A stretch of 64,000 nt of DNA from Phycisphaerales bacterium (GCA_028284805.1 JANQQZ010000084.1:5248-69247); one strand, 5' to 3'; shown: positions 9,744 through 49,084, counted from the first letter of the stretch. The notes: generated by a model not told the origin, from the sequence alone. Program-made: numbers and translations.

Positions 9744-11471
9744 ATGCCGGCCCGCCTGTGGAAGTACATCCTCGCCGACCTGTGGCGGCTGCTCCTGCTC
9801 ACGACCGTCGTGATCGTCACGGTGATCGCGCTCGCTGTGACCATCCGCCCGCTCGCGGACGGCAAGCTCACGCCCCTGCAGGCGATCCACTTCATGGGGC
9901 TAGCGACGATCCCGATGCTGGCGTATGCCGTGCCGTTCGGAGCCGGGTTCGCGGCGACGCTGGTCTACCACCGGATGGCGCAGGACAACGAGCTTGCCGC
10001 GGCTCACGCGGGGGGCGTCGGGCACCGCTCGGTGCTCGCGCCGGCGCTGATCTCGGGCGTGCTGCTCGCGGGCGTGCTTGGGGTGATCAGCGACCAGGTG
10101 ATCCCGCGGTTCCTGCGCACCATGGAGTCCTACGTCCGGCTCTCCATCGCCGACTGGATGGTCGTGCAGCTCACGCTGGGGAACACGTTCGAGTTCAACG
10201 GCACCGTGATCGGCGCGGAAGTGGTCGAGAAGCTCGACCCCGAGAACGTTGAGGGCGCCAAGACGGTTATCGCGCTGGGCAAGCCCGCGTTCCTGTTCCT
10301 CGACAGCGAGGGGCGGGCGAACACCGCGGGCACGGCGCGACGGGCGTTCCTGGCTGTGCGGCCCTCCGATGACCCGTGGGACGGGCCCGACGCGGGCGGT
10401 GGCACGGGCGCCGGGGGCGAGACCCGCTTCGGGTCCGTCGTGACCATCGTCGCGGAGGACTACCGGGGCAGCGGCGCCGGGGGCACGATCGCCAGCGAGG
10501 ACACGTTCCGCTACGACTTCGCGGTGCCGCCAGCGATCGTTGACGACCCGAAGTTCTTCACGTTCTCGCAGCTGCGGATCCTGCGAGAGCACCCAGAGCG
10601 GTTCGATTTCATCGACGAGTTCCGGCACCGCCTCGCGCTGCGCACGGCGTCCGTCGAGTACCTGCGCGATGTCGACACCGATCTTCGCGACGACCAGACC
10701 GCTGCGCTGACCACGGGCGAGGGCGACACGATCACAATCGAAGGGGCGCACCTCTCGGCGGGGCCGGCGCTGCGCCGCAGGGTGATCCCCGCGACGCCGG
10801 GCGTGCCGATCGACATCACGATCCGACGTGCGAGCGGCGAGACGGAGCGGGTCTCGGCGGCGCGGGCGATCCTGAACACCGCGGCGCCCGACGAGCTGAC
10901 ACGAAAGGGAGTCGAGGCACGCCTCGAGCTCGAGCACGTCGCCACGACCGGGCGTTCGGCGGCCGAGAGCATCCGCCTCGCGAGCGAGAGCACCCAGCCG
11001 GTCGCGGGCGTGCGTCGCCAGCGGTCCGTCACCGGGATCGTGACCGACAGCCCGAGGTACGCCGAGCTGCGCACCGGGTCGCTCGACACGGTTCTGGCCG
11101 AGACCGCCTACCTCACCGAGGGCGCCACGAAGTTCCAGGGCGCGATCGAGGCCCACGACAAGCTCGGCGCCATGCGCGTTGACGTGCTGCGCGAGATCAA
11201 CGCGAACATCCACGAGCGCATCGCGATGTCGCTCGCGGGGCTCGTGATGGTGCTGACGGGCGCGGTCGTCGCGATCCGCCTGCGCGACGCGCTGACGCTG
11301 ACCGTCTACCTCTGGGCGTTCTTCCCTGCGCTCTTCTCTGTGCTCGTCATCAGCATGGGCAAGCAGCTCACGCACGAGTTCGGATTCATCGGCGTGCCGA
11401 CGCTCTACCTGGGCGTGCTGATCCCGCTGGGCTACGCCGTTCTCACGTACCAGCAGATCCGCAGGCGATGA
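9744..11471 (+). CDS. LptF/LptG-family (YjgP/YjgQ) LPS export permease with an enlarged periplasmic domain
   Basis: 575 aa. The N-terminus MPARLWKYILADLWRLLLLTTVVIV... and three N-terminal plus three C-terminal TM helices flanking a large soluble domain fit the YjgP/YjgQ architecture. It overlaps the next gene by 4 nt (ATGA). Confidence 0.85.
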   Translation: MPARLWKYILADLWRLLLLTTVVIVTVIALAVTIRPLADGKLTPLQAIHFMGLATIPMLAYAVPFGAGFAATLVYHRMAQDNELAAAHAGGVGHRSVLAPALISGVLLAGVLGVISDQVIPRFLRTMESYVRLSIADWMVVQLTLGNTFEFNGTVIGAEVVEKLDPENVEGAKTVIALGKPAFLFLDSEGRANTAGTARRAFLAVRPSDDPWDGPDAGGGTGAGGETRFGSVVTIVAEDYRGSGAGGTIASEDTFRYDFAVPPAIVDDPKFFTFSQLRILREHPERFDFIDEFRHRLALRTASVEYLRDVDTDLRDDQTAALTTGEGDTITIEGAHLSAGPALRRRVIPATPGVPIDITIRRASGETERVSAARAILNTAAPDELTRKGVEARLELEHVATTGRSAAESIRLASESTQPVAGVRRQRSVTGIVTDSPRYAELRTGSLDTVLAETAYLTEGATKFQGAIEAHDKLGAMRVDVLREINANIHERIAMSLAGLVMVLTGAVVAIRLRDALTLTVYLWAFFPALFSVLVISMGKQLTHEFGFIGVPTLYLGVLIPLGYAVLTYQQIRRR

Positions 11472-25068: not shown

Positions 25069-25497
25069 TCATTCCGAATCTAGCCCCTCCGCTTTCTCGT
25101 CCGGACGCGTGTTGTCGGGCAGGAACTCGGTCCCCAGTATCAGCCCGCACTCCGGGCAGGTTTCCGAACGGAGCCCGCTCAGATTGAACCCGCACCCGGG
25201 GCAGGCCGCCCGCACCCGCGCGGGCACGAGCCACCGAGCGATCCACCGGGGCCAGCCGATCGCGATGATCGCGAACACCAATAGGACCGCCTGGAGCGAG
25301 ACGCTTGAGACCAGGCGTTCGAGGTTCCACCGCTGCACGCCGCCCCGACCCATCGCGGACGACAGATCATCGAGGTTCGTCCAGATGAAAGTGCCGACCC
25401 GCGTCGCGGCATAGAGCAGCAGGAGCAACCCGACGCCGCGCACGACCGCCGCGGCGACGTGCCTGTATCGGGCGATGTCAGCTGGGGTCGGGACCAT
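25069..25497 (-). CDS. small membrane protein with C-terminal CxxC...CPECG zinc ribbon (paralog S1)
   Basis: 142 aa with TM helices followed by ACPGCGFNLSGLRSETCPECGLILG. It overlaps the S2 stop by 20 nt. Confidence 0.7.
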   Translation of the reverse strand: MVPTPADIARYRHVAAAVVRGVGLLLLLYAATRVGTFIWTNLDDLSSAMGRGGVQRWNLERLVSSVSLQAVLLVFAIIAIGWPRWIARWLVPARVRAACPGCGFNLSGLRSETCPECGLILGTEFLPDNTRPDEKAEGLDSE

Positions 25498-25867
25498 CAG
25501 CCGAGTCTACCGAGCCCTCACGCAAAGCGAGCCCGCACTCCGGGCACGCTTCTGCTGCATCCGCCCGATAGCCGCACCGAGGGCAGCGTTCCTTCTGCAC
25601 GCGGACCATCTCTCTCGCCAGCCGCGGACCGAGCAGCCACAACGCCAAGGCAGCGCTCAGCCAGAACGCCACCGACGCGAACCGCACGAACTCCCAGGGT
25701 GACTGCGTCATCCCCTGCACCGCCACCGAGTAGTCCGCGTAGGCGATCGCGTACTCGACGTGCGTCAGCACGTCGCGCATCGCCCACAGCAGCGCGAGCA
25801 CCGAGATCACCCGCAGCGCCGCGACGACGAAGTGCCGAACGAGCCGGACCCGGTCGGCTTCAATCAC
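25478..25867 (-). CDS. small membrane protein with C-terminal CxxC...CPECG zinc ribbon (paralog S2)
   Basis: ORF 25478..25930. I place the start at the GTG at 25867, which overlaps the S3 stop as GTGA and aligns the N-terminus (VIEADRVRLVRHFVVAALRVISV) with S1 and S3. The zinc ribbon is RCPRCGYRADAAEACPECGLAL. Confidence 0.65.
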   Translation of the reverse strand: MIEADRVRLVRHFVVAALRVISVLALLWAMRDVLTHVEYAIAYADYSVAVQGMTQSPWEFVRFASVAFWLSAALALWLLGPRLAREMVRVQKERCPRCGYRADAAEACPECGLALREGSVDSADGPDPS

Positions 25868-26256
25868 GGCGGATCGTCCTTCGACTCGACCGGTGCATCG
25901 ACGATGTTCGTCCCCAGAACCAGCCCACATTCAGGGCAGACGTCGCCCCGCAGCCCTTCGAGGTCATACCGGCACTTCGGGCATTTCGTCATTCCCCACG
26001 GCAGCGCCGCACGAGCAAGAAACGGCGCGAGGTACCACAGTCCGACGTAAGCCAAGACATAGATCAGCATCCGGATCAGCGATCGCCACAGATCATCTGG
26101 ATCAGGCGCGTACCCCACCGGGTAGTTCCCGAAGTACGTCACGAAGACCAAATCCACCGACGCGATAAAGTAGTAAATGCCGAACCCGACCGATACAACA
26201 CGCATCGCACCCACCAGAATGCGGCGAGCACGGTACGTGAACTGGTCGTCGGTCAT
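25864..26256 (-). CDS. small membrane protein with C-terminal CxxC...CPECG zinc ribbon (paralog S3)
   Basis: 130 aa with TM helices followed by KCPKCRYDLEGLRGDVCPECGLVLG. Its start lies 3 nt after the upstream gene's stop. Confidence 0.7.
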   Translation of the reverse strand: MTDDQFTYRARRILVGAMRVVSVGFGIYYFIASVDLVFVTYFGNYPVGYAPDPDDLWRSLIRMLIYVLAYVGLWYLAPFLARAALPWGMTKCPKCRYDLEGLRGDVCPECGLVLGTNIVDAPVESKDDPP

Positions 26257-40993: not shown

Positions 40994-41392
40994 TCACGCC
41001 CGCGGGGGAAGCTCCCCACCCGGATCCGCATCATCGTCCGTCCGATCATCGATCTGTGCCGCGTTCGAGGCCTCGCTGATCAGGTTGTGCAGCTCGCCCT
41101 CGGGCATGTCGAGTTGGTCCGCCAGATCGCTCACGACCTTCATGTACGCCAGGCGCAGCCCCGCGAGGATCGTCACGAGCTGATCGCGGTTCTCGCCCGT
41201 CAGCCGCTGGCTGCCCGCGACCTCGACCGCGGTCAGCAGTTCCGCGCCGTGCTCGGCGCCCCACGCCTGGAACGGATCCTCGGGCCGGAACTCCTCGGGC
41301 ACCTCATCGCCCTCTGCCAGGCGCGCCGCGAACACGATCGCCGGCTTGAACCGCTCGCTGATCCCCCGGATCGATGACTCGAACTCACTCAT
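40994..41392 (-). CDS. hypothetical acidic protein
   Basis: From the internal Met (MSEFESSIRG...) of ORF 40994..41440. Coding-like composition; no domain recognised. Confidence 0.55.
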   Translation of the reverse strand: MSEFESSIRGISERFKPAIVFAARLAEGDEVPEEFRPEDPFQAWGAEHGAELLTAVEVAGSQRLTGENRDQLVTILAGLRLAYMKVVSDLADQLDMPEGELHNLISEASNAAQIDDRTDDDADPGGELPPRA

Positions 41393-41483
41393 GACACAAG
41401 GGTAGCGCGTCCCCCGAGTGCACCGAGACTCCCAAACCACCCCGACGACGCGGCACAGGCTTGTCCGAGGCTTGCGTAGAGGC

Positions 41484-43211
41484 TTACAGCCGACTCGCGG
41501 CCGACGTCGGGTCGCGGCTCGCGCTCGCGGTCGCCGAGGGATCGATCAGCGTGCTCGGGTCCGCGGGGAGCAGCACACGGAACGTCGCACCACCGCCCCG
41601 GGTCTGTTCGACCCAGACCTCGCCCCGGTGGTCCTCGATGATCCGCTTGGTCACCGCGAGACCGAGGCCCGTGCCGCGCATGCCCTTGGTGGTGTGGAAG
41701 GGCTCGAAGATCCACTCGCGTCGCTCGGAGGCGATGCCGGGCCCGTTGTCGATGATCGCGATCTCGACCTCGGCCGAATCGCCCCGCGCGATGCGCGAGC
41801 CCGTCTTGTGCCCGTCCTCGATCGGGCGCCCCTTGGGGAAGTACCCCACGCGTACCGTCACCGTCCCCGACTTGGGCTCCACCGCCTCCACCGCGTTCGT
41901 CATCAGGTTCATCATCGCCTGGTGCATCAGGTTCGGGTCAAGGGGCAGCGGCGGGATGTCCGGGTCCACGTCTACGAGCAGCACTACCTGACGCGTCGAG
42001 CACAGGCCCTCGAGCAGCTGCGCGCAGTCGTCCAGCAGAGGCCCGAGCTTGGTCAGCTCGATCTCGATGTTCCGCTGGCGGCTGAACGCCAGCATGTTCA
42101 GTGTCAGCCCCATGATCCGGTCGAGGTTGCGCTTGAGGATCGACCACCCGCCCTTGGCGATCTTCAGGTCGTCCTTGCGCAGCCCCATCTCGACGACATC
42201 CGCCCCGCCGCGCAGGCCCTGCAGGATGTTCTTGATCGAGTGCGAGAGGCTCGCGACCGTCTCGCCGATGACCGCGAGACGCTCCTTGTGGATCTGGTCG
42301 CCCGTCAGCTCCAGGTTCGCCATCGCCAGGCCCGTCTGCTGGCCGACCGCGTTCAGCAGAGCGAGCTGATCCGCCGTGAACGTGTAGTTCACGATCGAGC
42401 TGTCGATGTAGATCGCCCCGAAGACACGGTCGCGGAAGACGATCGGCGCACACATCGCGCTGCGGATGCCGAACCGCTGGACGCTGTCGCCCGCCTTGAA
42501 CCGAGGGTCGGCCATCGCGTTCGAGCTCAGCACCGCCTGGCGCTTGCTCATCGCGTGCTGGAGGATCGTCTGGCTGATCTTGATCTTCTTGTCTTCCTCG
42601 TCCGTCGGCTCGGCCATGAACTTCACCGCGACCGGCTTGGGCGAGTGGTACTTGTCGGGCGCGATCATCATGACGCCCCGCTCGGGCTCGAACTGGTCGA
42701 AGACGGTTTCCAAGACCTCCGCCAGCAACTCCTGCTCGTCGAGCGCGTCCGTCGCGATCGCCGACACACGGAACAGCATCTTCAGGTGCTCGTTCGCCGC
42801 CAGCCTGGGCTCGGGCTCGGCCATCAGCACCGAGTCCTCGTTGCTCGCGAGCGCGTGCTCGATGTCCGCGTCGATCTCGTCGGGGCGCACCAGCTCGACG
42901 ATCTCCGACCCGGGATCGGTGAGCACCCCGCCGAACGCGAGCACCGTCGACCCGACCCGGATCTGATCCCCCGCGCGGAGTTTCACGCGTGAGGCGATCT
43001 GCGTCCCGTTCACCCACGTCCCGTTGTGGCTCTTCAGGTCGCGCACGTACCACGACCCGCCGTCGGGCGTTAGCTCGGCGTGCCGACGGCTCACCGTGTT
43101 GTCCGTGATGGGCAACGCCTCCGACGACCGCCCGATCAGCTGCGGCTCGTTGTCCGGCAGGCTGAACTGCTTGCCCTTCTGCGGGCCCTGGACGACGGTG
43201 AGGAGGAGCAT
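41484..43211 (-). CDS. cytoplasmic sensor histidine kinase: FHA + GAF + HisKA + HATPase_c
   Basis: The FHA domain is IGRSSEALPITDNTVSRRHAEL...VRDLKSHNGTWVNG. A central GAF-like segment follows. The H-box is SLSHSIKNILQGL, and N, G1 and G2 boxes are present (MMNLMTNAVEA, DNGPGI, GTGLGLAV). It has no TM helix. Confidence 0.9.
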   Translation of the reverse strand: MLLLTVVQGPQKGKQFSLPDNEPQLIGRSSEALPITDNTVSRRHAELTPDGGSWYVRDLKSHNGTWVNGTQIASRVKLRAGDQIRVGSTVLAFGGVLTDPGSEIVELVRPDEIDADIEHALASNEDSVLMAEPEPRLAANEHLKMLFRVSAIATDALDEQELLAEVLETVFDQFEPERGVMMIAPDKYHSPKPVAVKFMAEPTDEEDKKIKISQTILQHAMSKRQAVLSSNAMADPRFKAGDSVQRFGIRSAMCAPIVFRDRVFGAIYIDSSIVNYTFTADQLALLNAVGQQTGLAMANLELTGDQIHKERLAVIGETVASLSHSIKNILQGLRGGADVVEMGLRKDDLKIAKGGWSILKRNLDRIMGLTLNMLAFSRQRNIEIELTKLGPLLDDCAQLLEGLCSTRQVVLLVDVDPDIPPLPLDPNLMHQAMMNLMTNAVEAVEPKSGTVTVRVGYFPKGRPIEDGHKTGSRIARGDSAEVEIAIIDNGPGIASERREWIFEPFHTTKGMRGTGLGLAVTKRIIEDHRGEVWVEQTRGGGATFRVLLPADPSTLIDPSATASASRDPTSAASRL

Positions 43212-43223
43212 GACAAATCGTAG

Positions 43224-44405
43224 CTACTGACCACCAGCATGCAGCCTCGAAGCACAGGCCGCCTCTGTAGAAAGCAACTCCATGCTCAGGGGCAGTGTTC
43301 CGGCCCAACCGGCTCTGAGTTCCTCGCGAGTGGGCAGGTACTTCTCATCAGCGTCGGCTGCGATGCGAAATGCCGGATACTGAATGTCCAGAGCCGCCAC
43401 AAACCGTGCTTCATCCCGCACAACAACCATCAATCGATCAGCGTCGCCACGCAATGTCGATAAGCTTCCGAGTCGAGTTCGATGCTGTCTCCGCCAGGTA
43501 CCTTCTGTGCTTTGGTAGTGAAACTCGGTGACATAGCCGTACGGGAGCATGATCTGTGCCTCGAAACTCGAGAACCCATAGCTGACGAACTCGCCTTGCA
43601 CGGGACGCGGAATGAGATTCTCGCGGCGCCAGCCAATCCTCTCGATCTCGGTGAACCGGATGTAGTCTGATACGATTCTGGTCGCTTCGTGCGCGAGAAT
43701 GGTTTCTGGGAGGCTTCGGCCTCGAACCCACCGAGTAATGAGATCGCGAGAGACGTGGCGTGTGCGCGAAATGCTCCTTTCTCGCAAACCTCGGTCTTCA
43801 GGTATCGCAAGTCGCCACCAGCGATACGCGACGATCCGACAAAGAGGGCCGATCTCCCCGTACCGACCCCTTGAAAGCAGTTCCTCCGCAGCAGATGCTG
43901 AGTCACCGGGCATGTCGACGCGGTTCTCCTGATCCATCAACTCGCGCGCGAATCGATGAAACTTGTCCTGCTCAGCCAAGCTCACGTCCGTTGCAGGATC
44001 CAAACGCATCAGCTCCCAATCGAAGTGTCTGTAGTGGTCGTCCGAAAGCCGCATTGCCCATGGACCGTACAAGATCAATGCCGTTGTCGGCATCACGCCC
44101 CACGCGCCTCGCTCCTGCACCCGCGGCACGACCCACAGCCCATAGCCACCAACCACCATCACCAGCAGCAGCGCCCACGCCGAAACCCACCGCCGCCTCG
44201 TCCGCGTCAGATGCTTCGGCTTCGCGTGCGTCTTCCCACACTCCGGGCACGCCACCGGCACATCGCCCGCACCGTCCATGTCGTACCAGCACCGACAGCA
44301 CCGCCTCTGCCCCCGCGGCCGATCCCAGAACAGCGCCCACAGCACGCCGACGAACGCCAGCAGCGCGACCGCGTACCCCGACCAGTGCCAGAACCACTCG
44401 GGCAT
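43224..44405 (-). CDS. TM-zinc ribbon-TM membrane protein, array member P1 (C-terminal domain type A)
   Basis: 393 aa. The N-terminal module is MPEWFWHWSGYAVALLAFVGVLWALFWDRPRGQRRCCRCWYDMDGAGDVPVACPECGKTHAKPKHLTRTRRRW followed by a second TM helix. The C-terminal domain is homologous to that of P4. Confidence 0.8.
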   Translation of the reverse strand: MPEWFWHWSGYAVALLAFVGVLWALFWDRPRGQRRCCRCWYDMDGAGDVPVACPECGKTHAKPKHLTRTRRRWVSAWALLLVMVVGGYGLWVVPRVQERGAWGVMPTTALILYGPWAMRLSDDHYRHFDWELMRLDPATDVSLAEQDKFHRFARELMDQENRVDMPGDSASAAEELLSRGRYGEIGPLCRIVAYRWWRLAIPEDRGLRERSISRTRHVSRDLITRWVRGRSLPETILAHEATRIVSDYIRFTEIERIGWRRENLIPRPVQGEFVSYGFSSFEAQIMLPYGYVTEFHYQSTEGTWRRQHRTRLGSLSTLRGDADRLMVVVRDEARFVAALDIQYPAFRIAADADEKYLPTREELRAGWAGTLPLSMELLSTEAACASRLHAGGQ

Positions 44406-44411
44406 GAAGGC

Positions 44412-44417
44412 AGTCTA
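44412..44417 (-). promoter_or_regulatory. -10-like hexamer TAGACT, 6 nt upstream of the P1 ATG
   Basis: The minus strand reads TAGACT-GCCTTC-ATG. Confidence 0.4.
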
Positions 44418-44453
44418 TCGAAACCAGCAGCCCGCCCGAAGCAAACCAGCAGA

Positions 44454-45404
44454 CTACGGCGCGATCGGAAGCCGCTCGACTCGCTCGGGCTCGAACATGA
44501 ACCCACGGCCGGACGCCGGGCGGTACACAACCACGAGCCGGCAGTACTCGCCCTGATCATCGAAAAGACGGTATAGAATCCTGATGCGCCGAGGCTGATC
44601 CGTGTGCGGCATGAACGGTCGCCCGAGTATGCGCCGATCTGGTCGATAGGTAAGCATCCGACTTTCATCAAAGCTGAGTGGGTCGTCATCGTCTGAAAGA
44701 AATACGAAGCGAATCTCGCCGGACAAACTCATCCCGCTCTGCGGAAACTGATTGAGGTACTCCCAGTCGCTACCGGCAAGGCCAACGGCCTCGACGCTGA
44801 ACGCCCAAGTCGCCCAATCGGCGGCCCGCTCGCGGCTCAGCCTGCCGAACCACACCTCGTGCGCCAGGACCGCGTCGACAGCCGACGCTTCCGTCTGACT
44901 GGGCGCGCCCTGGCTTCTCCGCCACCCCGTCAGATACCAGTACTCGACGCCGACGGATTTCGCCCAGTCGGGGAGCCGGTCCCACCGCTGCCCCCAATAC
45001 CACAGCGCCGGGCTCCCATGGATCGCACCGACTGGAACGTCGTTCTCGTGAGATATCAGCGGCGCGATAGCAACCATCAGCGTTGTTGGGAGCAATCCTG
45101 GTGGGCCGTCCGAAGCAACCCGCGGCACCACCCACAGCCCGTACCCGCCAACCACCATCACCAACCCGAGCACAACCGCGCGCCCCCACCGACGACGCGT
45201 CCTCGTCAGGTCTTTCGCTTTCGCGTGCGCCTTGCCACACTCCGGACAACTCGCCGGCAGATCACCGACACCGCCCAGGTCGTACCAGCACCGCCGGCAC
45301 CGCTTCCTCCCGCGTGGTCGATCCCAGACGAGCGCCCACACGACACCGACGAACGAAACCAGCGCCACCGCGTACCCAGACCAGTGCCAGATCCACTCGG
45401 GCAT
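44454..45404 (-). CDS. TM-zinc ribbon-TM membrane protein, array member P2 (C-terminal domain type B)
   Basis: 316 aa. It has the same N-terminal module (…CRRCWYDLGGVGDLPASCPECGKAH…TRTRRRW… plus TM2). The Trp-rich C-terminal domain cannot be aligned by eye with P1, P3 or P4. Confidence 0.8.
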   Translation of the reverse strand: MPEWIWHWSGYAVALVSFVGVVWALVWDRPRGRKRCRRCWYDLGGVGDLPASCPECGKAHAKAKDLTRTRRRWGRAVVLGLVMVVGGYGLWVVPRVASDGPPGLLPTTLMVAIAPLISHENDVPVGAIHGSPALWYWGQRWDRLPDWAKSVGVEYWYLTGWRRSQGAPSQTEASAVDAVLAHEVWFGRLSRERAADWATWAFSVEAVGLAGSDWEYLNQFPQSGMSLSGEIRFVFLSDDDDPLSFDESRMLTYRPDRRILGRPFMPHTDQPRRIRILYRLFDDQGEYCRLVVVYRPASGRGFMFEPERVERLPIAP

Positions 45405-45410
45405 GGACTC

Positions 45411-45416
45411 AGTCTA
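45411..45416 (-). promoter_or_regulatory. -10-like hexamer TAGACT, 6 nt upstream of the P2 ATG
   Basis: The minus strand reads TAGACT-GAGTCC-ATG. Confidence 0.4.
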
Positions 45417-45430
45417 CTGAAAGCAACCGC

Positions 45431-46462
45431 TCAATCGACGACCTCAACCGCGATCGGATCCGCCTCCCACGACTGCACATCCAATTCTGCGTACGACTCG
45501 AGCACACCGGGCCGGTACGCCACGATCCATTTCCGCGTCACGCGGAAGTCCGGCTCGCGCACCCGGATCTGGTACCGCACCTCGACGCCCTCCTGCCACA
45601 CCGGATCGAAGTCGGCGAGCGGGTCCTCGCTGTCGGGGTTACCGCCGGTCGCCCACCCTCCGCTGCCGCTGATCATGGTGTAGCGGGGCGAGACGCCGTC
45701 CGCGCGGAGCATCCGCCAGTCGAGCCGCCACCCGCGAGGGATCACGATGCCGCGGTTCGACCAGGCCTGCTGCCTCGGGTGCTCCAACCAGATCCGGTCG
45801 CCGCGCGTGTCCATCCGACCAACAAGGGGCACATCGATCAAGCGTTGACCAACCGCCGAGTGCACCACCCGCCGCAGCATTGCTTCCGGCAGATTTGACT
45901 GCACGACGAGTTCCTCTCGGCACCACTGCACGAGCCGAGGCTCATCGTGCTGCCCGACCGGTTCCGGGCTCCATGCCCCGAACCAGCGGTACGCGACACC
46001 ACCCAGGACCTTCGGCATGTCGTAGCACCGGCGCCGTAGTTCTGACCCGTAGGTTGCCCCCCGAAACGCGGCATGACGCCCCGATGCACCCGGCGAACCC
46101 TCTGCCGCCTGAATCACAGGTGCGAAAGCAATCAACGCCGACGTTGGCACCACGCCAACCCACCCCTGCTCCTGCACCCGCGGCACGACCCACAGCCCAT
46201 ACCCACCAACCACCATCGCGAAGAACAGCGCAGCCGCACGCCACCACCGACGACGCGTCCTCGTCAGGTCCTTCGCTTTCGCGTGTGCCCTGCCACACTC
46301 CGGGCAGCTCGCCGGAAGATCACCGACACCGCTCATGTCGTACCAGCACCGCCGGCACCGCTTCCGCCCACGCGGGCGATCCCAGACGAGCGCCCACAGG
46401 ACGCCGACGAACGCCGCCAGCGCCACCGCGTACCCAGACCAGTGCCACACCTCTGCAGGCAT
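45431..46462 (-). CDS. TM-zinc ribbon-TM membrane protein, array member P3 (C-terminal domain type C)
   Basis: 343 aa with the same N-terminal module and a third, distinct C-terminal domain. Confidence 0.8.
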   Translation of the reverse strand: MPAEVWHWSGYAVALAAFVGVLWALVWDRPRGRKRCRRCWYDMSGVGDLPASCPECGRAHAKAKDLTRTRRRWWRAAALFFAMVVGGYGLWVVPRVQEQGWVGVVPTSALIAFAPVIQAAEGSPGASGRHAAFRGATYGSELRRRCYDMPKVLGGVAYRWFGAWSPEPVGQHDEPRLVQWCREELVVQSNLPEAMLRRVVHSAVGQRLIDVPLVGRMDTRGDRIWLEHPRQQAWSNRGIVIPRGWRLDWRMLRADGVSPRYTMISGSGGWATGGNPDSEDPLADFDPVWQEGVEVRYQIRVREPDFRVTRKWIVAYRPGVLESYAELDVQSWEADPIAVEVVD

Positions 46463-46468
46463 CGCCCG

Positions 46469-46474
46469 AGTCTA
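46469..46474 (-). promoter_or_regulatory. -10-like hexamer TAGACT, 6 nt upstream of the P3 ATG
   Basis: The minus strand reads TAGACT-CGGGCG-ATG. Confidence 0.4.
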
Positions 46475-46550
46475 TAGAGACGACCCGCTCATCCCAAGCA
46501 ATCCGGTGCACTGGCCTGATCGCCAGCACAGCGATCACCACGAGCCCGAG

Positions 46551-47711
46551 TTACAGCGGATCCTCGAACACCCGAGACCGCATCTCAATCTCAGACTCGA
46601 TCAGCTCGATGCCGTTCGGCAGCGTCCCCGTCCACTCTTCGCTGAGCGCATCAGCCTTGGGCAGATAGGTGTACCCGGCATCCGCCGCGATCCGAAACTC
46701 GTTGTATGCGACATCGAACGCCCCGACAAACCGAGACTCGTCGCGCACCACCACCGCGACACGGGTCGCCGCGCCCCGCAACGGCAGCCGACCGAGCTGA
46801 TGACGCCACCCGCCGTCGGGATCCATGTAGTGCACCTCGACGACGTACCCGCGCGGAAGTCCGAGCCGACCCTCGAAACGAACGAAGCCGCCGTAATTGA
46901 AATGCAACCCCTCGGGCGGGCGACGCACGAGACCCTCACGCTTCCACCCGATCCGCTCGATCGGCGTGGACTCGATGAGATCGCGGACGATGCCGATGCA
47001 CCCCGCATCCACAAGCGGCCCGGGCAGCTTGCGCGACCGCACCCATCCCCGCGACACCTCGTCGGTCACGCGGGCCGTGCCCCGCCACGAATCCGACTCT
47101 GCGCTCAGCCCCGCGGCATCCGCCCACCGCCACCACGTGAACGCGAGCACCCGCGTCCGCTCGCCCATCGACCCGGCGCGCACCAGCAGCTCTTCCGCCA
47201 TGCCCTCCGGCGTCTTCCGCAAAACACGGTTGTTCTGCTCCCACTCGGCCTTCGAAAACCGATGGAACCGGTCCGCCTCCGCTCGCTGCGCAGCCGTTGG
47301 TGTCTCTCCCCACTCCGCCAGATCAAACTGGATGCCGCTGATTTGGTCGTTCAGATGTTCAAGCCACGGGCCGGCCGCGATCAGTGCCGTCGTGGGAATC
47401 AGCCCCCACGCCCCGCGCTCCTGCACCCGCGGCACCACCCATAGCCCGTACCCGCCAACCACCATCGCGAGCGACAACAGAGCCGCCCGCCCCCACCGCC
47501 GCCGTGTGCGTGTCAGGTCCTTCGCTTTCGCGTGCGACCTGCCGCACTCCGGACAGCTCGCCGGCAGATCACCGACACCGCTCAGGTCGTACCAGCACCG
47601 CCGGCACCGCTTCCGCCCCCGCGCCCGATCCCAGAAGATCGCCCACACAACACCGACGAACGAAACCAGCGCCACCGCGTACCCAGACCAGTGCCAGATC
47701 CACTCGGGCAT
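46551..47711 (-). CDS. TM-zinc ribbon-TM membrane protein, array member P4 (C-terminal domain type A)
   Basis: 386 aa with the same N-terminal module. The C-terminal domain aligns with P1: DRFHRFSKAEWEQNNRV with DKFHRFARELMDQENRV, IERIGWKREGLVRRPPEG with IERIGWRRENLIPRPVQG, and RVAVVVRDESRFVGAFDVAYNEFRIAADAGYTYLP with RLMVVVRDEARFVAALDIQYPAFRIAADADEKYLP. Confidence 0.8.
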   Translation of the reverse strand: MPEWIWHWSGYAVALVSFVGVVWAIFWDRARGRKRCRRCWYDLSGVGDLPASCPECGRSHAKAKDLTRTRRRWGRAALLSLAMVVGGYGLWVVPRVQERGAWGLIPTTALIAAGPWLEHLNDQISGIQFDLAEWGETPTAAQRAEADRFHRFSKAEWEQNNRVLRKTPEGMAEELLVRAGSMGERTRVLAFTWWRWADAAGLSAESDSWRGTARVTDEVSRGWVRSRKLPGPLVDAGCIGIVRDLIESTPIERIGWKREGLVRRPPEGLHFNYGGFVRFEGRLGLPRGYVVEVHYMDPDGGWRHQLGRLPLRGAATRVAVVVRDESRFVGAFDVAYNEFRIAADAGYTYLPKADALSEEWTGTLPNGIELIESEIEMRSRVFEDPL

Positions 47712-47717
47712 GATGAA

Positions 47718-47723
47718 ATCTTA
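47718..47723 (-). promoter_or_regulatory. -10-like hexamer TAAGAT, 6 nt upstream of the P4 ATG
   Basis: The minus strand reads TAAGAT-TTCATC-ATG. Confidence 0.4.
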
Positions 47724-47872: not shown

Positions 47873-49084
47873 TCACGCCCGCAGGGCCAGCGTGCTCAGC
47901 AGCTCCACGCCCGTCGCGATCGCGTCGTCGTTGAAATCAAACGTCGGCGTGTGCAGCTCGGGGTAGTGGTCAGCGCCGCGGGGCTTCAACCCCATGAAGA
48001 AGAAGCACGCGGGCACGTGCATGCCGTAGTAGCTGAAGTCCTCGCCTCCCATGACGGGCTGCTGGGCGAGCATCACGCGCTCGGCGCCGAGCGCGCCGCA
48101 GGCGATCTCCATCGCCTTCGCGGCGAGCGTTTCGTCGTTCCGGGTCACCGGGTAGCCCACACGCCACTCGACGTGCGCCTCGCACCCGTGCGCCCTGGCG
48201 GTCAGGTCCGCGATCTCGCGTACGCGTCGCTCGAGCCGCTCGCGGATCTCGGGCAGCAGCGCGCGGGTCGTGCCCTCGAGCTCAACCTCTTCGGGGATGA
48301 TGTTGTCCACCGTCCCCCCCGTGATCCGCCCCACCGTGCACACGCCCGCCTCGAGAGGCCCGGTGCTCCGGCTGACCACGGTCTGCAACGCCATGACGAT
48401 CGCGCTCGCCGCGACAACCGGGTCGCGGCACTCGTGGGGCCACGCCGCGTGACCGCCCTTGCCCTTGACCGTGATCAGGAACTCATCGGTCGAGGCCATC
48501 ATCGGGCCCGGGCGCGTCGCAACGGTCCCAAGCTCCATGCCTGGCCAGCCGTGCAGGCCGAAGATCTCGCCGACCGGCGCGCCGAGCCCGCCGCCGGTCT
48601 CGCCCTTGAGCGCGCCCTCGTCGCACATCATCGCGCCCCCACCCCCGCCCTCTTCCGCCGGCTGGAAGACGAACGTGATCGGCCTCGGCCTGTGCTCGGC
48701 CTGACTGAGCACGCGGGCCGCGCCGAGGAGCATCGCCGTGTGCCCGTCGTGCCCGCACGCGTGCATCACGCCCGGGTTCGTGCTCGCGTGCGCCTCGCCC
48801 GACTTCTCCGTGATCGGCAGCGCGTCCATGTCCGCCCGCAGCGCCACAGCGGTCGCGTCCGTCTCGACCGTCGCAGGCAGGTACCCGAGCACGCCCGTGC
48901 CCTTCGCGTAGCCGCCCTTGCACTCGATGCCCAGGCGCGTCAGCTCGTCGACGACCACCCGGCTCGTGCGCGACTCCTCGAACATCAGCTCCGGGTGCGC
49001 GTGCAGGTCGCGGCGGATCGCGGTGATCGCCGAAATCTCGTCCTCGATCGCGCTACGCAGGGTCGGTGTGGTGGTCATGGTCAT
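47873..49084 (-). CDS. M20-family amidohydrolase (N-acyl-amino acid amidohydrolase / hippuricase-like)
   Basis: 403 aa with RRDLHAHPEL, MHACGHDGHTAMLLGAA, FQPAEEGGGG and GGEDFSYY. Confidence 0.9.
   Translation of the reverse strand: MTMTTTPTLRSAIEDEISAITAIRRDLHAHPELMFEESRTSRVVVDELTRLGIECKGGYAKGTGVLGYLPATVETDATAVALRADMDALPITEKSGEAHASTNPGVMHACGHDGHTAMLLGAARVLSQAEHRPRPITFVFQPAEEGGGGGAMMCDEGALKGETGGGLGAPVGEIFGLHGWPGMELGTVATRPGPMMASTDEFLITVKGKGGHAAWPHECRDPVVAASAIVMALQTVVSRSTGPLEAGVCTVGRITGGTVDNIIPEEVELEGTTRALLPEIRERLERRVREIADLTARAHGCEAHVEWRVGYPVTRNDETLAAKAMEIACGALGAERVMLAQQPVMGGEDFSYYGMHVPACFFFMGLKPRGADHYPELHTPTFDFNDDAIATGVELLSTLALRA

Follow-up and report, generated by a model that had tools for sequence, protein, structure and literature searches.

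A tandem array of membrane proteins with a constant N-terminal module and exchanged C-terminal domains beside a histidine kinase gene in a Phycisphaerales bacterium

Introduction

What would a bacterium gain from four membrane proteins that are encoded head to tail, begin with nearly the same sequence and end in different domains? This question is raised by the genes P1 to P4 on the minus strand of a 64,000-nucleotide (nt) stretch of DNA from a Phycisphaerales bacterium (GCA_028284805.1, JANQQZ010000084.1:5248-69247; the whole stretch is referred to as the window). A first-pass annotation of this DNA had described a module of two transmembrane (TM) helices enclosing a zinc-ribbon motif, followed by variable C-terminal domains (C-domains). 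Here, the genes are assigned to an uncharacterised family, and the exchange of C-domain cassettes by recombination is shown for their slot next to a histidine kinase gene. The anatomy and the recombination history given below are very likely correct. For the array as a whole, an explanation as receptor-like proteins, encoded by recombining paralogues and placed in the inner membrane, is preferred tentatively, though we would not call it probable.

Results

Four genes share a module and diverge beyond it

The four open reading frames (ORFs) were found exactly where the first-pass annotation had placed them (Table 1). Residues 1-96 of P1 to P4 align without gaps at 74-90% protein identity and 80-89% DNA identity, and exactly 10 of these 96 residues differ between P2 and P4, for which about 10 differences had been counted by hand. 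The near-identical module, first taken to be ~100 amino acids (aa) long, actually comprises ~118 aa, as some 22 residues past the second TM helix (QERGxWGxxPTTxLIxxxPW) are still conserved. The direct DNA repeats of ~300 bp that had been reported are real, with exact shared tracts of 16-63 nt between modules, the longest joining P2 and P4. Spacers between the array genes measure 26-88 nt, and all four frames are intact with the periodicity GC1 > GC2 < GC3 (GC content at codon positions 1 to 3) of coding DNA. The array is not due to chance, because a hidden Markov model (HMM) of the module matches the ORFs with E=5e-58 to 8e-56 and because synonymous divergence (pS) is much lower among the modules of the window (0.24-0.41) than between the P1/P4 C-domains (0.72). 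This profile, A2, was built in this analysis and has no public accession; P1 to P4 are part of its seed.

Beyond the module, the sequences part. P1 and P4 have homologous C-domains (type A; 45% identity over 294 aa, E=4e-70) and P2 and P3 each a different one, as had been read from the sequence earlier: past the linker, P2 and P3 showed no BLASTP similarity to the other array copies and no link by hhalign (best probability for P3, 3.9%). The type-B domain of P2 is common to P0008 and P0009 of other genomes (46-48% identity), and both type A and type B recur elsewhere. About 25 non-redundant proteins of the subfamily defined below fall into 12 C-domain types. Among these 12 clusters, hhalign connected the P2-type with the P0016-type (89%), the P0015-type with P0014 (87%) and the P1/P4-type with P0006 (44%); no link joined P1/P4, P2 and P3. 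AlphaFold2 (AF2) models of P4 and P2 were of moderate confidence (mean predicted local distance difference test, pLDDT, 68.5 and 70.6). That of P4 is laid out as TM helix, beta-hairpin ribbon, TM helix, short helix, helical subdomain and beta subdomain, and in both proteins a helical membrane-proximal part is followed by a beta-rich part. The three C-domain sequence types of the array match no known domain. They may still be diverged forms of one domain: hhalign neither joins nor separates the types decisively, and the AF2 layouts of P4 and P2 are alike.

The P3 C-domain stands apart, with no homologue among 5.8e9 protein clusters. The exact P3 protein was likewise not found in a collection of 15 billion proteins, in which P1, P2, P4 and the kinase of the same contig are present; P3 may have been uncalled or differently called in the source annotation. 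Its in-frame GC1/2/3 of 0.71/0.50/0.80 is consistent with coding. These observations bear on the notion that the array consists of decaying duplicates, in which only the N-terminal modules are real and some C-termini, especially that of P3, are remnants or chance frames. GC-rich DNA yields many long spurious ORFs and the C-domains have a low GC content at third codon positions (GC3), which would suit such decay. Decay would, however, leave unexplained that four frames persist with coding-type periodicity, that each copy has kept its promoter box and that types A and B occur in other genomes. Moreover, nonsynonymous divergence (pN) is well below pS in the C-domain pairs P1/P4 and P2/P0008, which indicates purifying selection. 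We therefore regard decay as very unlikely.

C-domain cassettes are exchanged at a slot beside a histidine kinase gene

The last gene of the array ends 12 nt before a gene for a soluble FHA-GAF-HisKA-HATPase histidine kinase. The first-pass annotation had named an FHA-GAF histidine kinase at this place, in agreement with the ORF coordinates and with Pfam matches (FHA, 8e-19; GAF, 3.5e-15; HATPase_c, 1.7e-23). On reading the sequence, the canonical FHA residues G27-R28, S41, H44 and N63-G64-T65 were all found. Wherever the neighbourhood can be judged in one clade, a family gene is directly followed on its 3' side by an orthologue of this kinase (14 of 14 loci: the window, L001, L003, L005, L006, L008, L010, L013-L017, L087 and L089), with gaps of a few to ~25 nt; at L005, the adjacency is kept beside a different upstream neighbour. 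The family genes at this slot form a linked subfamily, marked by a WHWSGYAVA-type TM1 and by GGYGLWVVPRV in TM2, and all four array copies carry both marks. In the nearest relatives the kinase is 90-94% identical (pS ~0.33), and at the margin of the clade it is 76-77% identical. The association of family and kinase is clade-specific. Most relatives have one copy at the slot, L003 has two and the window four, the largest array seen there; a tandem array is hence not the usual state, as might have been supposed from the window.

The window shares collinear slot flanks of 80-97% nt identity with L001, L003, L006, L008 and L010, and inside the slot only the module of ~300-366 nt aligns. The sharpest case is the comparison of L001 with L008. 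As far as codon ~122 of the family gene, and then once more beyond the kinase ATG, their DNA agrees at 89.7-96.7%; the ~750 nt in between show no similarity at all. The N-terminal modules are 95% identical. The distribution of C-domain types is incongruent with kinase relatedness, as the window and L008 share type B and L001 and L008 do not share a type. A further trace was found in L003, where 85 nt between the two family genes (positions 11094-11178) are a copy of the first 28 kinase codons at 95% identity, which runs on into the promoter region of the second family gene. This remnant is the footprint of an allele, reaching from module to kinase 5' end, that was added and not exchanged by recombination. 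Remnants of the kinase 5' end are present only in L003; the spacers of the window contain none. With the unalignable C-domain DNA between similar flanks and the surviving remnant, cassette exchange by recombination at the slot is shown, and the terms "cassette-like" and "recombinational shuffling", used by the first-pass annotation as a conjecture, apply.

Base composition sets the cassettes apart as well. In every genome, GC3 of the C-domains is 0.58-0.81, compared with 0.75-0.89 in the modules and 0.92-0.96 in the kinase and M20 peptidase genes on either side; for the P1 C-domain it is 0.62 against 0.94 in the flanking genes. As a separate observation, local GC content dips to 0.63-0.66 at 42001-46000 of the window, compared with ~0.68-0.71 around it. 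The C-domains of P2 and P0008 are synonymously saturated (pS 0.70), whereas the kinase comparison gives pS ~0.33. Because same-type alleles in close genomes are saturated, the cassettes must be of old origin and in horizontal circulation, and not products of fresh mutation. In very recent pairs, module and C-domain have nearly equal identities (0.86 vs 0.85, and 0.88 vs 0.83). Within the window, P2 and P4 have the most similar modules though their C-domains are unrelated. This module similarity indicates gene conversion and offers a substrate for unequal crossing-over.

These data amount to the following course of events. Between close relatives, the C-domain is replaced by homologous recombination, with the N-terminal module and the kinase 5' end serving as the two arms. 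Where the incoming allele is added instead of exchanged, the array grows from one to two to four copies, whose ~350-bp modules are then kept alike by gene conversion. A diversity-generating retroelement or a phase-variable inversion was considered as the source of variation and set aside, as no reverse transcriptase or invertase gene was found at the locus; no dedicated search for inverted repeats was made.

The same observations are those expected of a conflict or immunity repertoire. The array would then be a stock of specificities built up over time, in which the variable periplasmic domains ward off or shut out equally variable agents from outside, for instance phage components or toxins that competitors direct at the periplasm. 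The TM hairpin would do no more than hold the domains in the membrane, and the kinase would lie there incidentally, as the landmark of a recombination hot spot. Replacement of C-domains between near-identical genomes, with 12 types in ~25 sequences, and the low C-domain GC3 fit such a repertoire better than they fit receptors. Ancient allele types beside a much less diverged kinase, variable copy number, tandem arrays of the wider superfamily elsewhere and a kinase that lacks a family neighbour outside the clade are also in line with it. On the other hand, no toxin, secretion-system or phage gene was found in or near the slot at the surveyed loci, no PADLOC match was obtained and IMG/VR viral contigs held no relatives. 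Immunity proteins are usually small and without a strongly conserved cytoplasmic module, and the constancy of the TM helices and of LxxTRRRW speaks for a role beyond passive anchoring. On balance, a conflict function is judged rather unlikely, but it is the foremost rival of the receptor explanation.

Anatomy and topology of the constant module

The module begins with a short N-tail on the outer side, followed by TM1, a basic four-cysteine (C4) ribbon, the juxtamembrane motif LxxTRRRW, TM2 with the packing motif GGYG and a short interfacial helix. In the hydrophobicity analysis, TM1 (~aa 8-26) and TM2 (~aa 74-94) had strong insertion scores. The 47-residue loop between them contains 12-14 Lys/Arg against 5 Asp/Glu, and the 8-residue N-tail contains no Lys/Arg. 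The loop carries C36xxC39 and C53PEC56G, and in 101 divergent relatives C36, C39, C53, C56 and G57 are invariant. The positions of its end, L66-x-x-T69-R-R-R-W73, are kept in 77-99 of the 101 (T69 and L66 in 89 each, R70-R72 in 89-99). In the linked subfamily, TM2 (MVVGGYGLWVVPRV) is nearly invariant, which points to specific packing of this helix.

The loop has the pattern of a C4 zinc ribbon, for which zinc binding is predicted. AF2 places short beta strands at each CxxC knuckle in P4 and P2, and weak Rpo12 and DUF1610 profile matches agree; the matches to PDB 36rp_P (E=0.015), PDB 6ydh (E=0.063) and NCBIfam HVO_2753 (E=0.07) are all below threshold. A C2H2 zinc finger was rejected. PDB matches to Aart and consensus fingers (E down to 1.7e-20) are sums over repeated fingers and cover only CPECGxx...L..RT, a local coincidence; the C2H2 spacing fails, since Thr69 and not His stands 13 residues after C56, and there is an extra CxxC pair upstream.

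The constant anchor with variable exposed domains had earlier been likened to anti-sigma-like families, among others. Membrane anti-sigma factors with variable sensor domains resemble the array proteins superficially in a zinc-binding cytoplasmic element, a TM helix and an extracytoplasmic domain, and there was one sub-threshold NCBIfam "antisigma" match (E=0.75, 9.7 bits against a cut-off of 100). The defining features of these regulators are nevertheless missing, as the HxxxCxxC motif of zinc-binding anti-sigma (ZAS) proteins is replaced by a CxxC...CxxC between two TM helices, Pfam gave no zf-HC2 or RskA match and no sigma-factor gene was found in the surveyed neighbourhoods, including L001, L003, L005 and L006. 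With its 45 aa, the loop is also too small. An anti-sigma role is extremely unlikely, and this part of the first-pass annotation is not supported.

Whether the C-domain faces the periplasm depends on the segment aa 100-118, which is marginally hydrophobic (Kyte-Doolittle, KD, mean up to 1.73 in P3) and contains two prolines. Its summed Hessa value of 6-9, compared with 0.3-3 for TM1 and TM2, denotes poor insertion, and the AF2 helix in it spans only 7-15 residues (P4, P2). Natural fusions provide another line of evidence: 11 proteins contain two consecutive modules (TM-ZnR-TM-TM-ZnR-TM; ZnR, zinc ribbon), and in P0029, whose first ribbon is without its cysteines, module and domain alternate twice (module-domain-module-domain) with exactly four TM windows. 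Since these proteins require an even TM count between their ribbons, probably only TM1 and TM2 cross the membrane. Together with the hydrophobicity of TM1 and TM2 and the Lys/Arg excess of the loop, this makes a cytoplasmic ribbon and a periplasmic C-domain likely, as the first-pass annotation had held; its "exposed" domain is periplasmic at most.

If aa 100-118 were a third TM helix instead, the variable domain would be a cytoplasmic sensor, the part played by HEAT and LRR domains in other defence proteins, and the hairpin a membrane-damaging effector, as in an abortive-infection defence. The hydrophobicity of the segment, the HEAT and LRR domains in the superfamily and a hot-spot behaviour with variability and atypical GC, reminiscent of defence islands, would fit. 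But a crossing by this segment, besides its poor insertion value, prolines and short helix, would place the second ribbon of P0029 outside the cell. In addition, PADLOC matched none of P1 to P4, the kinase and the 132-aa ORF behind it (E<=0.01), and an NTPase or nuclease partner is lacking. An abortive-infection system is accordingly held to be highly improbable.

The module defines a large superfamily in Phycisphaerae

Scans of P1 to P4 against Pfam, NCBIfam and PADLOC gave nothing above threshold, and the best matches below it (CcmD, E=0.05; DUF7130, 0.16; HVO_2753, 0.07) were considered noise. A PDB sequence search with the module profile returned generic zinc knuckles only. As Foldseek did not explain the proteins either, the earlier statement that no characterised family has this architecture stands, and no paper describing the module family was found in the literature. 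The family is not rare. A search with whole P4 yielded only 21 proteins, all from metagenome-assembled genomes (MAGs) of Planctomycetota or Phycisphaerales, and the module profile alone retrieved 4,475 clusters (50% identity) at E<=1e-3 and 2,134 at E<=1e-10. In species-representative genomes, 330 stretches were confirmed, and the 78 loci listed are nearly all in Phycisphaerae MAGs; a metagenome scan added only four further short contigs of the subfamily. The common signature is TM1 - DRxRGRxRC(P/R)xCWYD...CPECG - LxxTRRRW - TM2 - PxVxxxG...P. The combination of constant anchor and variable domain is hence the hallmark of a whole unannotated superfamily that is lineage-specific and almost entirely confined to Phycisphaerae.

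Tandem arrays were also found at L004 and L018 (5 copies each), L044 (6 copies) and L046 and L071 (4-5 copies). In every array pair, the N-terminal modules (40-76% identity) are more alike than the C-domains (20-35% or undetectable). In the 101 divergent members, the module is followed by HEAT (19 proteins) or LRR (3 proteins), and mostly by no known domain; Pfam DZR or DZR_2 was reached by 4-5 of the 101 and zf-LITAF-like by one.

Such a composition could mean that the hairpin is simply an envelope scaffold, tethering periplasmic HEAT, ARM, LRR and other, unknown alpha+beta domains under weak constraint, with neither signalling nor an arms race. HEAT, ARM or LRR repeats in ~20% of the superfamily, a large single-lineage family with many copies per genome and C-domains that evolve faster than N-terminal modules over long distances are what a scaffold would predict. 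It would not explain the clean replacement between 90-97%-identical flanks, the low GC3, the kinase adjacency in all 14 loci (including L005 with its different upstream flank) or the strong conservation of the basic cytoplasmic ribbon. We consider a pure scaffold unlikely.

Transcription starts

Each array gene is preceded by a -10-like hexamer exactly 6 nt before its ATG; all four had been noticed at the outset and were confirmed (Table 1). In the subfamily, TAnnnT occurs at this distance in 14 of 15 genes across species (variants TAGACT, TACACT, TAAACT, TACGCT and TATGCT). Among 88 called genes from L001, L003, L004, L005 and L006, a TAnnnT ending 5-7 nt before the start was present in 24, compared with 1.2% of all ATGs, and other genes of this set have AAGGAG-like Shine-Dalgarno sequences. 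A scan for consensus sigma-70 -35/-10 elements returned no promoter, and no convincing terminator was found between the copies. The conservation of the box supports the leaderless transcription suggested by the first-pass annotation, and independent leaderless-type transcription of each copy, typical of the lineage, is plausible from the sequence. Because each gene has its own promoter box, an operon or co-transcription with the kinase is not implied.

Features of the locus and further observations

Table 1. Coordinates of the features described, counted from the first nucleotide of the window.
Feature	Position	Strand	Remarks
P1 family gene	43224-44405	(-)	393 aa; module and type-A C-domain; stop 12 nt before kinase ATG
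P2 family gene	44454-45404	(-)	316 aa; module and type-B C-domain
P3 family gene	45431-46462	(-)	343 aa; module and orphan C-domain
P4 family gene	46551-47711	(-)	386 aa; module aa 1-118 and type-A C-domain homologous to that of P1
P1 N-module DNA repeat	44052-44405	(-)	codons 1-118
P2 N-module DNA repeat	45051-45404	(-)	63-nt tract identical to P4
P3 N-module DNA repeat	46109-46462	(-)	codons 1-118
P4 N-module DNA repeat	47358-47711	(-)	codons 1-118: TM1, C36xxC39...C53xxC56 ribbon, LTRTRRRW, TM2 with GGYG, short helix
-10-like hexamer TAGACT	44412-44417	(-)	6 nt before P1 ATG
-10-like hexamer TAGACT	45411-45416	(-)	6 nt before P2 ATG
-10-like hexamer TAGACT	46469-46474	(-)	6 nt before P3 ATG
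-10-like hexamer TAAGAT	47718-47723	(-)	6 nt before P4 ATG
FHA-GAF-HisKA-HATPase histidine kinase, soluble	41484-43211	(-)	3' neighbour; 3' boundary of variable cassette
Kinase box TACGAT	43217-43222	(-)	5 nt before kinase ATG
Box TACCCT of downstream 132-aa ORF	41399-41404	(-)
M20 peptidase gene	47873-49084	(-)	conserved 5' flank of slot in most relatives; outside the system
Double-module and fusion proteins			P0029, P0030, P0031, P0041, P0054, P0059, P0076, P0081, P0110, P0138, P0146, P0152

Directly after the kinase gene, an acidic ORF of ~132-139 aa was observed in the window (40994-41392, minus strand), with orthologues in L001, L003, L005 and L006; the distant L115 has a 96-aa ORF at this position. 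Neither Pfam nor PADLOC matched the 132-aa ORF. Some 7 kb upstream, the syntenic block also contains a gene for a stand-alone receiver domain.

The spacer between the M20 gene and P4 (47724-47872, 149 nt) consists of nested GC-rich hairpins (CCCCCGTTGCCAACGGGGG, CCCGCCTTCGGCGGG and CCCCCGTCGGCGACGGGGG) with a minimum free energy of -93.6 kcal/mol and without a trailing T-tract. It could be a terminator or an element resembling repetitive extragenic palindromic (REP) sequences.

A second tandem array was noticed at 25069-26256 on the minus strand. Its three small ORFs of 142, 150 and 130 aa each encode two hydrophobic helices that precede a zinc ribbon (CPxCxY...CPECGL) at the C-terminus; the knuckles have the motif seen in P1 to P4, but the ribbon stands after TM2. 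The 130-aa ORF had a weak match to the N-module HMM (2e-6).

Discussion

As the tentative explanation of the array we have given receptor-like proteins, and this can be spelled out. The variable C-domain of 200-300 aa would be a periplasmic binding or recognition module, and the zinc-ribbon hairpin with LxxTRRRW would be the surface for output or docking that all copies share. Oligomers of the modules probably form through the invariant TM helices, and the hairpin probably recruits or modulates the adjoining soluble kinase, the most plausible partner at the slot. One candidate contact is binding of the kinase FHA domain to phosphorylated Thr69 of LTRTRRRW; none of the canonical residues for phosphothreonine binding is missing from this FHA domain, and its candidate ligand is obviously Thr69. 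By this means, one kinase would have a choice of several periplasmic inputs, and what is recognised would be under diversifying or frequency-dependent selection. For this receptor-plus-kinase mechanism the function is inferred, and we rate it as possible but doubtful. Still more is claimed by a general scheme in which exchangeable cassettes on the hairpin plug into the kinase via the LxxTRRRW phosphothreonine, the repertoire recombines at a dedicated slot and the thousands of unlinked paralogues dock in like manner to other FHA proteins or other partners, so that a new modular type of receptor would have been found; this we believe to be quite improbable.

Several points weigh against the receptor explanation. 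No annotated homologue supports the function, and the best Foldseek match of the P4 and P2 models, which are of moderate confidence, to PDB structures had E=0.16. Thr69 and TRRRW are conserved in thousands of members that are not linked to the kinase, and FHA domains do not typically prefer Arg at position +3 of the phosphothreonine. The cytoplasmic module measures only ~45 aa and has no enzymatic output. The marginal hydrophobicity of aa 100-118 leaves room for a third TM helix and a cytoplasmic C-domain. Cassettes of atypical GC that turn over at the level of strains would be expected of conflict genes more than of sensors. As to the kinase, it is a core gene of Phycisphaerae (3,453 matches at E<=1e-60, ~60% identity), and three orthologous kinase loci of ~60% identity have no adjoining family gene, so that a general linkage, as opposed to one within a single clade, does not hold. 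Adjacency is the sole basis for coupling array and kinase; because local gene order is generally stable in the clade, it is moderate evidence only. That every gene has a promoter of its own, and that an operon is hence not implied, points the same way.

The array thus represents an uncharacterised family with a new architecture. A constant anchor with diversifying exposed domains is a known theme, and a categorically new mechanism is not demonstrated. Planctomycetota have many large families of hypothetical membrane proteins, and the module family accounts for many of those in the poorly studied Phycisphaerae. The locus is, furthermore, an unusually clean natural case of cassette exchange at the level of domains, with sharp breakpoints, a surviving footprint and a copy series of one, two and four. 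Starts of the leaderless TAnnnT type mark roughly a quarter of the sampled genes in these genomes. Should the hairpin dock to the kinase, the reading of Ser/Thr phosphorylation would be linked to two-component signalling via exchangeable sensors; should the cassettes serve immunity or exclusion, they would offer a first handle on inter-strain conflict in Phycisphaerae.

Comparison with known systems

Of the systems compared, several resemble the module or its neighbour in single traits. The C4 ribbons of the archaeal RNA polymerase subunit Rpo12/P and of HVO_2753/DUF1610 have two CxxC knuckles on beta-hairpins, as predicted here, but that of the array is enclosed by two TM helices, has a strongly basic character and leads into LxxTRRRW. 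In LITAF-like and DZR proteins, a ribbon is tied to hydrophobic membrane segments, as in the module; in LITAF, however, the hydrophobic hairpin stands between the knuckles, whereas the array proteins have both knuckles in one inter-TM loop, and P1 to P4 had no match to either family. The ZAS proteins RsiW and RslA (zf-HC2) bind zinc on the cytoplasmic side and have a TM helix and a sensor domain outside the cytoplasm, traits that are predicted for the array proteins too. The array proteins do not belong to them, lacking HxxxCxxC and a sigma gene and having a ribbon flanked by two TM helices. The neighbouring kinase recalls EspA of Myxococcus, which also has an N-terminal FHA domain (partial NCBIfam matches to EspA, 6.5e-28, and EspC, 6.3e-25, far below the cut-offs). 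In the EspA system, Ser/Thr kinases and EspB, a membrane protein encoded alongside, act together with the FHA kinase. The kinase described here differs in having GAF and not PAS and in lacking a receiver, the membrane proteins are unrelated to EspB and there is no Ser/Thr kinase at the locus.

Two likenesses concern the array as a whole. In CdiA-CT and Rhs-CT loci, too, unrelated cassettes follow a conserved N-terminal part, tandem arrays occur, cassettes are replaced by recombination at a sharp module boundary and their GC content is atypical. The array is not one of them, since its proteins are membrane-integral, Pfam matched no toxin or delivery domain in them and secretion-system genes are absent; immunity genes are not interleaved, because the spacers leave no room for them. 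Methyl-accepting chemotaxis proteins (MCPs), which dock to soluble CheA, are similar in their variable periplasmic domain, conserved module and many paralogues per genome, and in that a soluble kinase could be the common output. This is a functional analogy only, as there is no relation in sequence or fold, the array proteins had no Pfam match to HAMP or MCPsignal domains and they have a 45-aa ribbon between TM helices in place of a coiled-coil after them. The closest analogues of the array are modular receptors such as the MCPs in working principle, and the CdiA-CT and Rhs loci in evolutionary behaviour.

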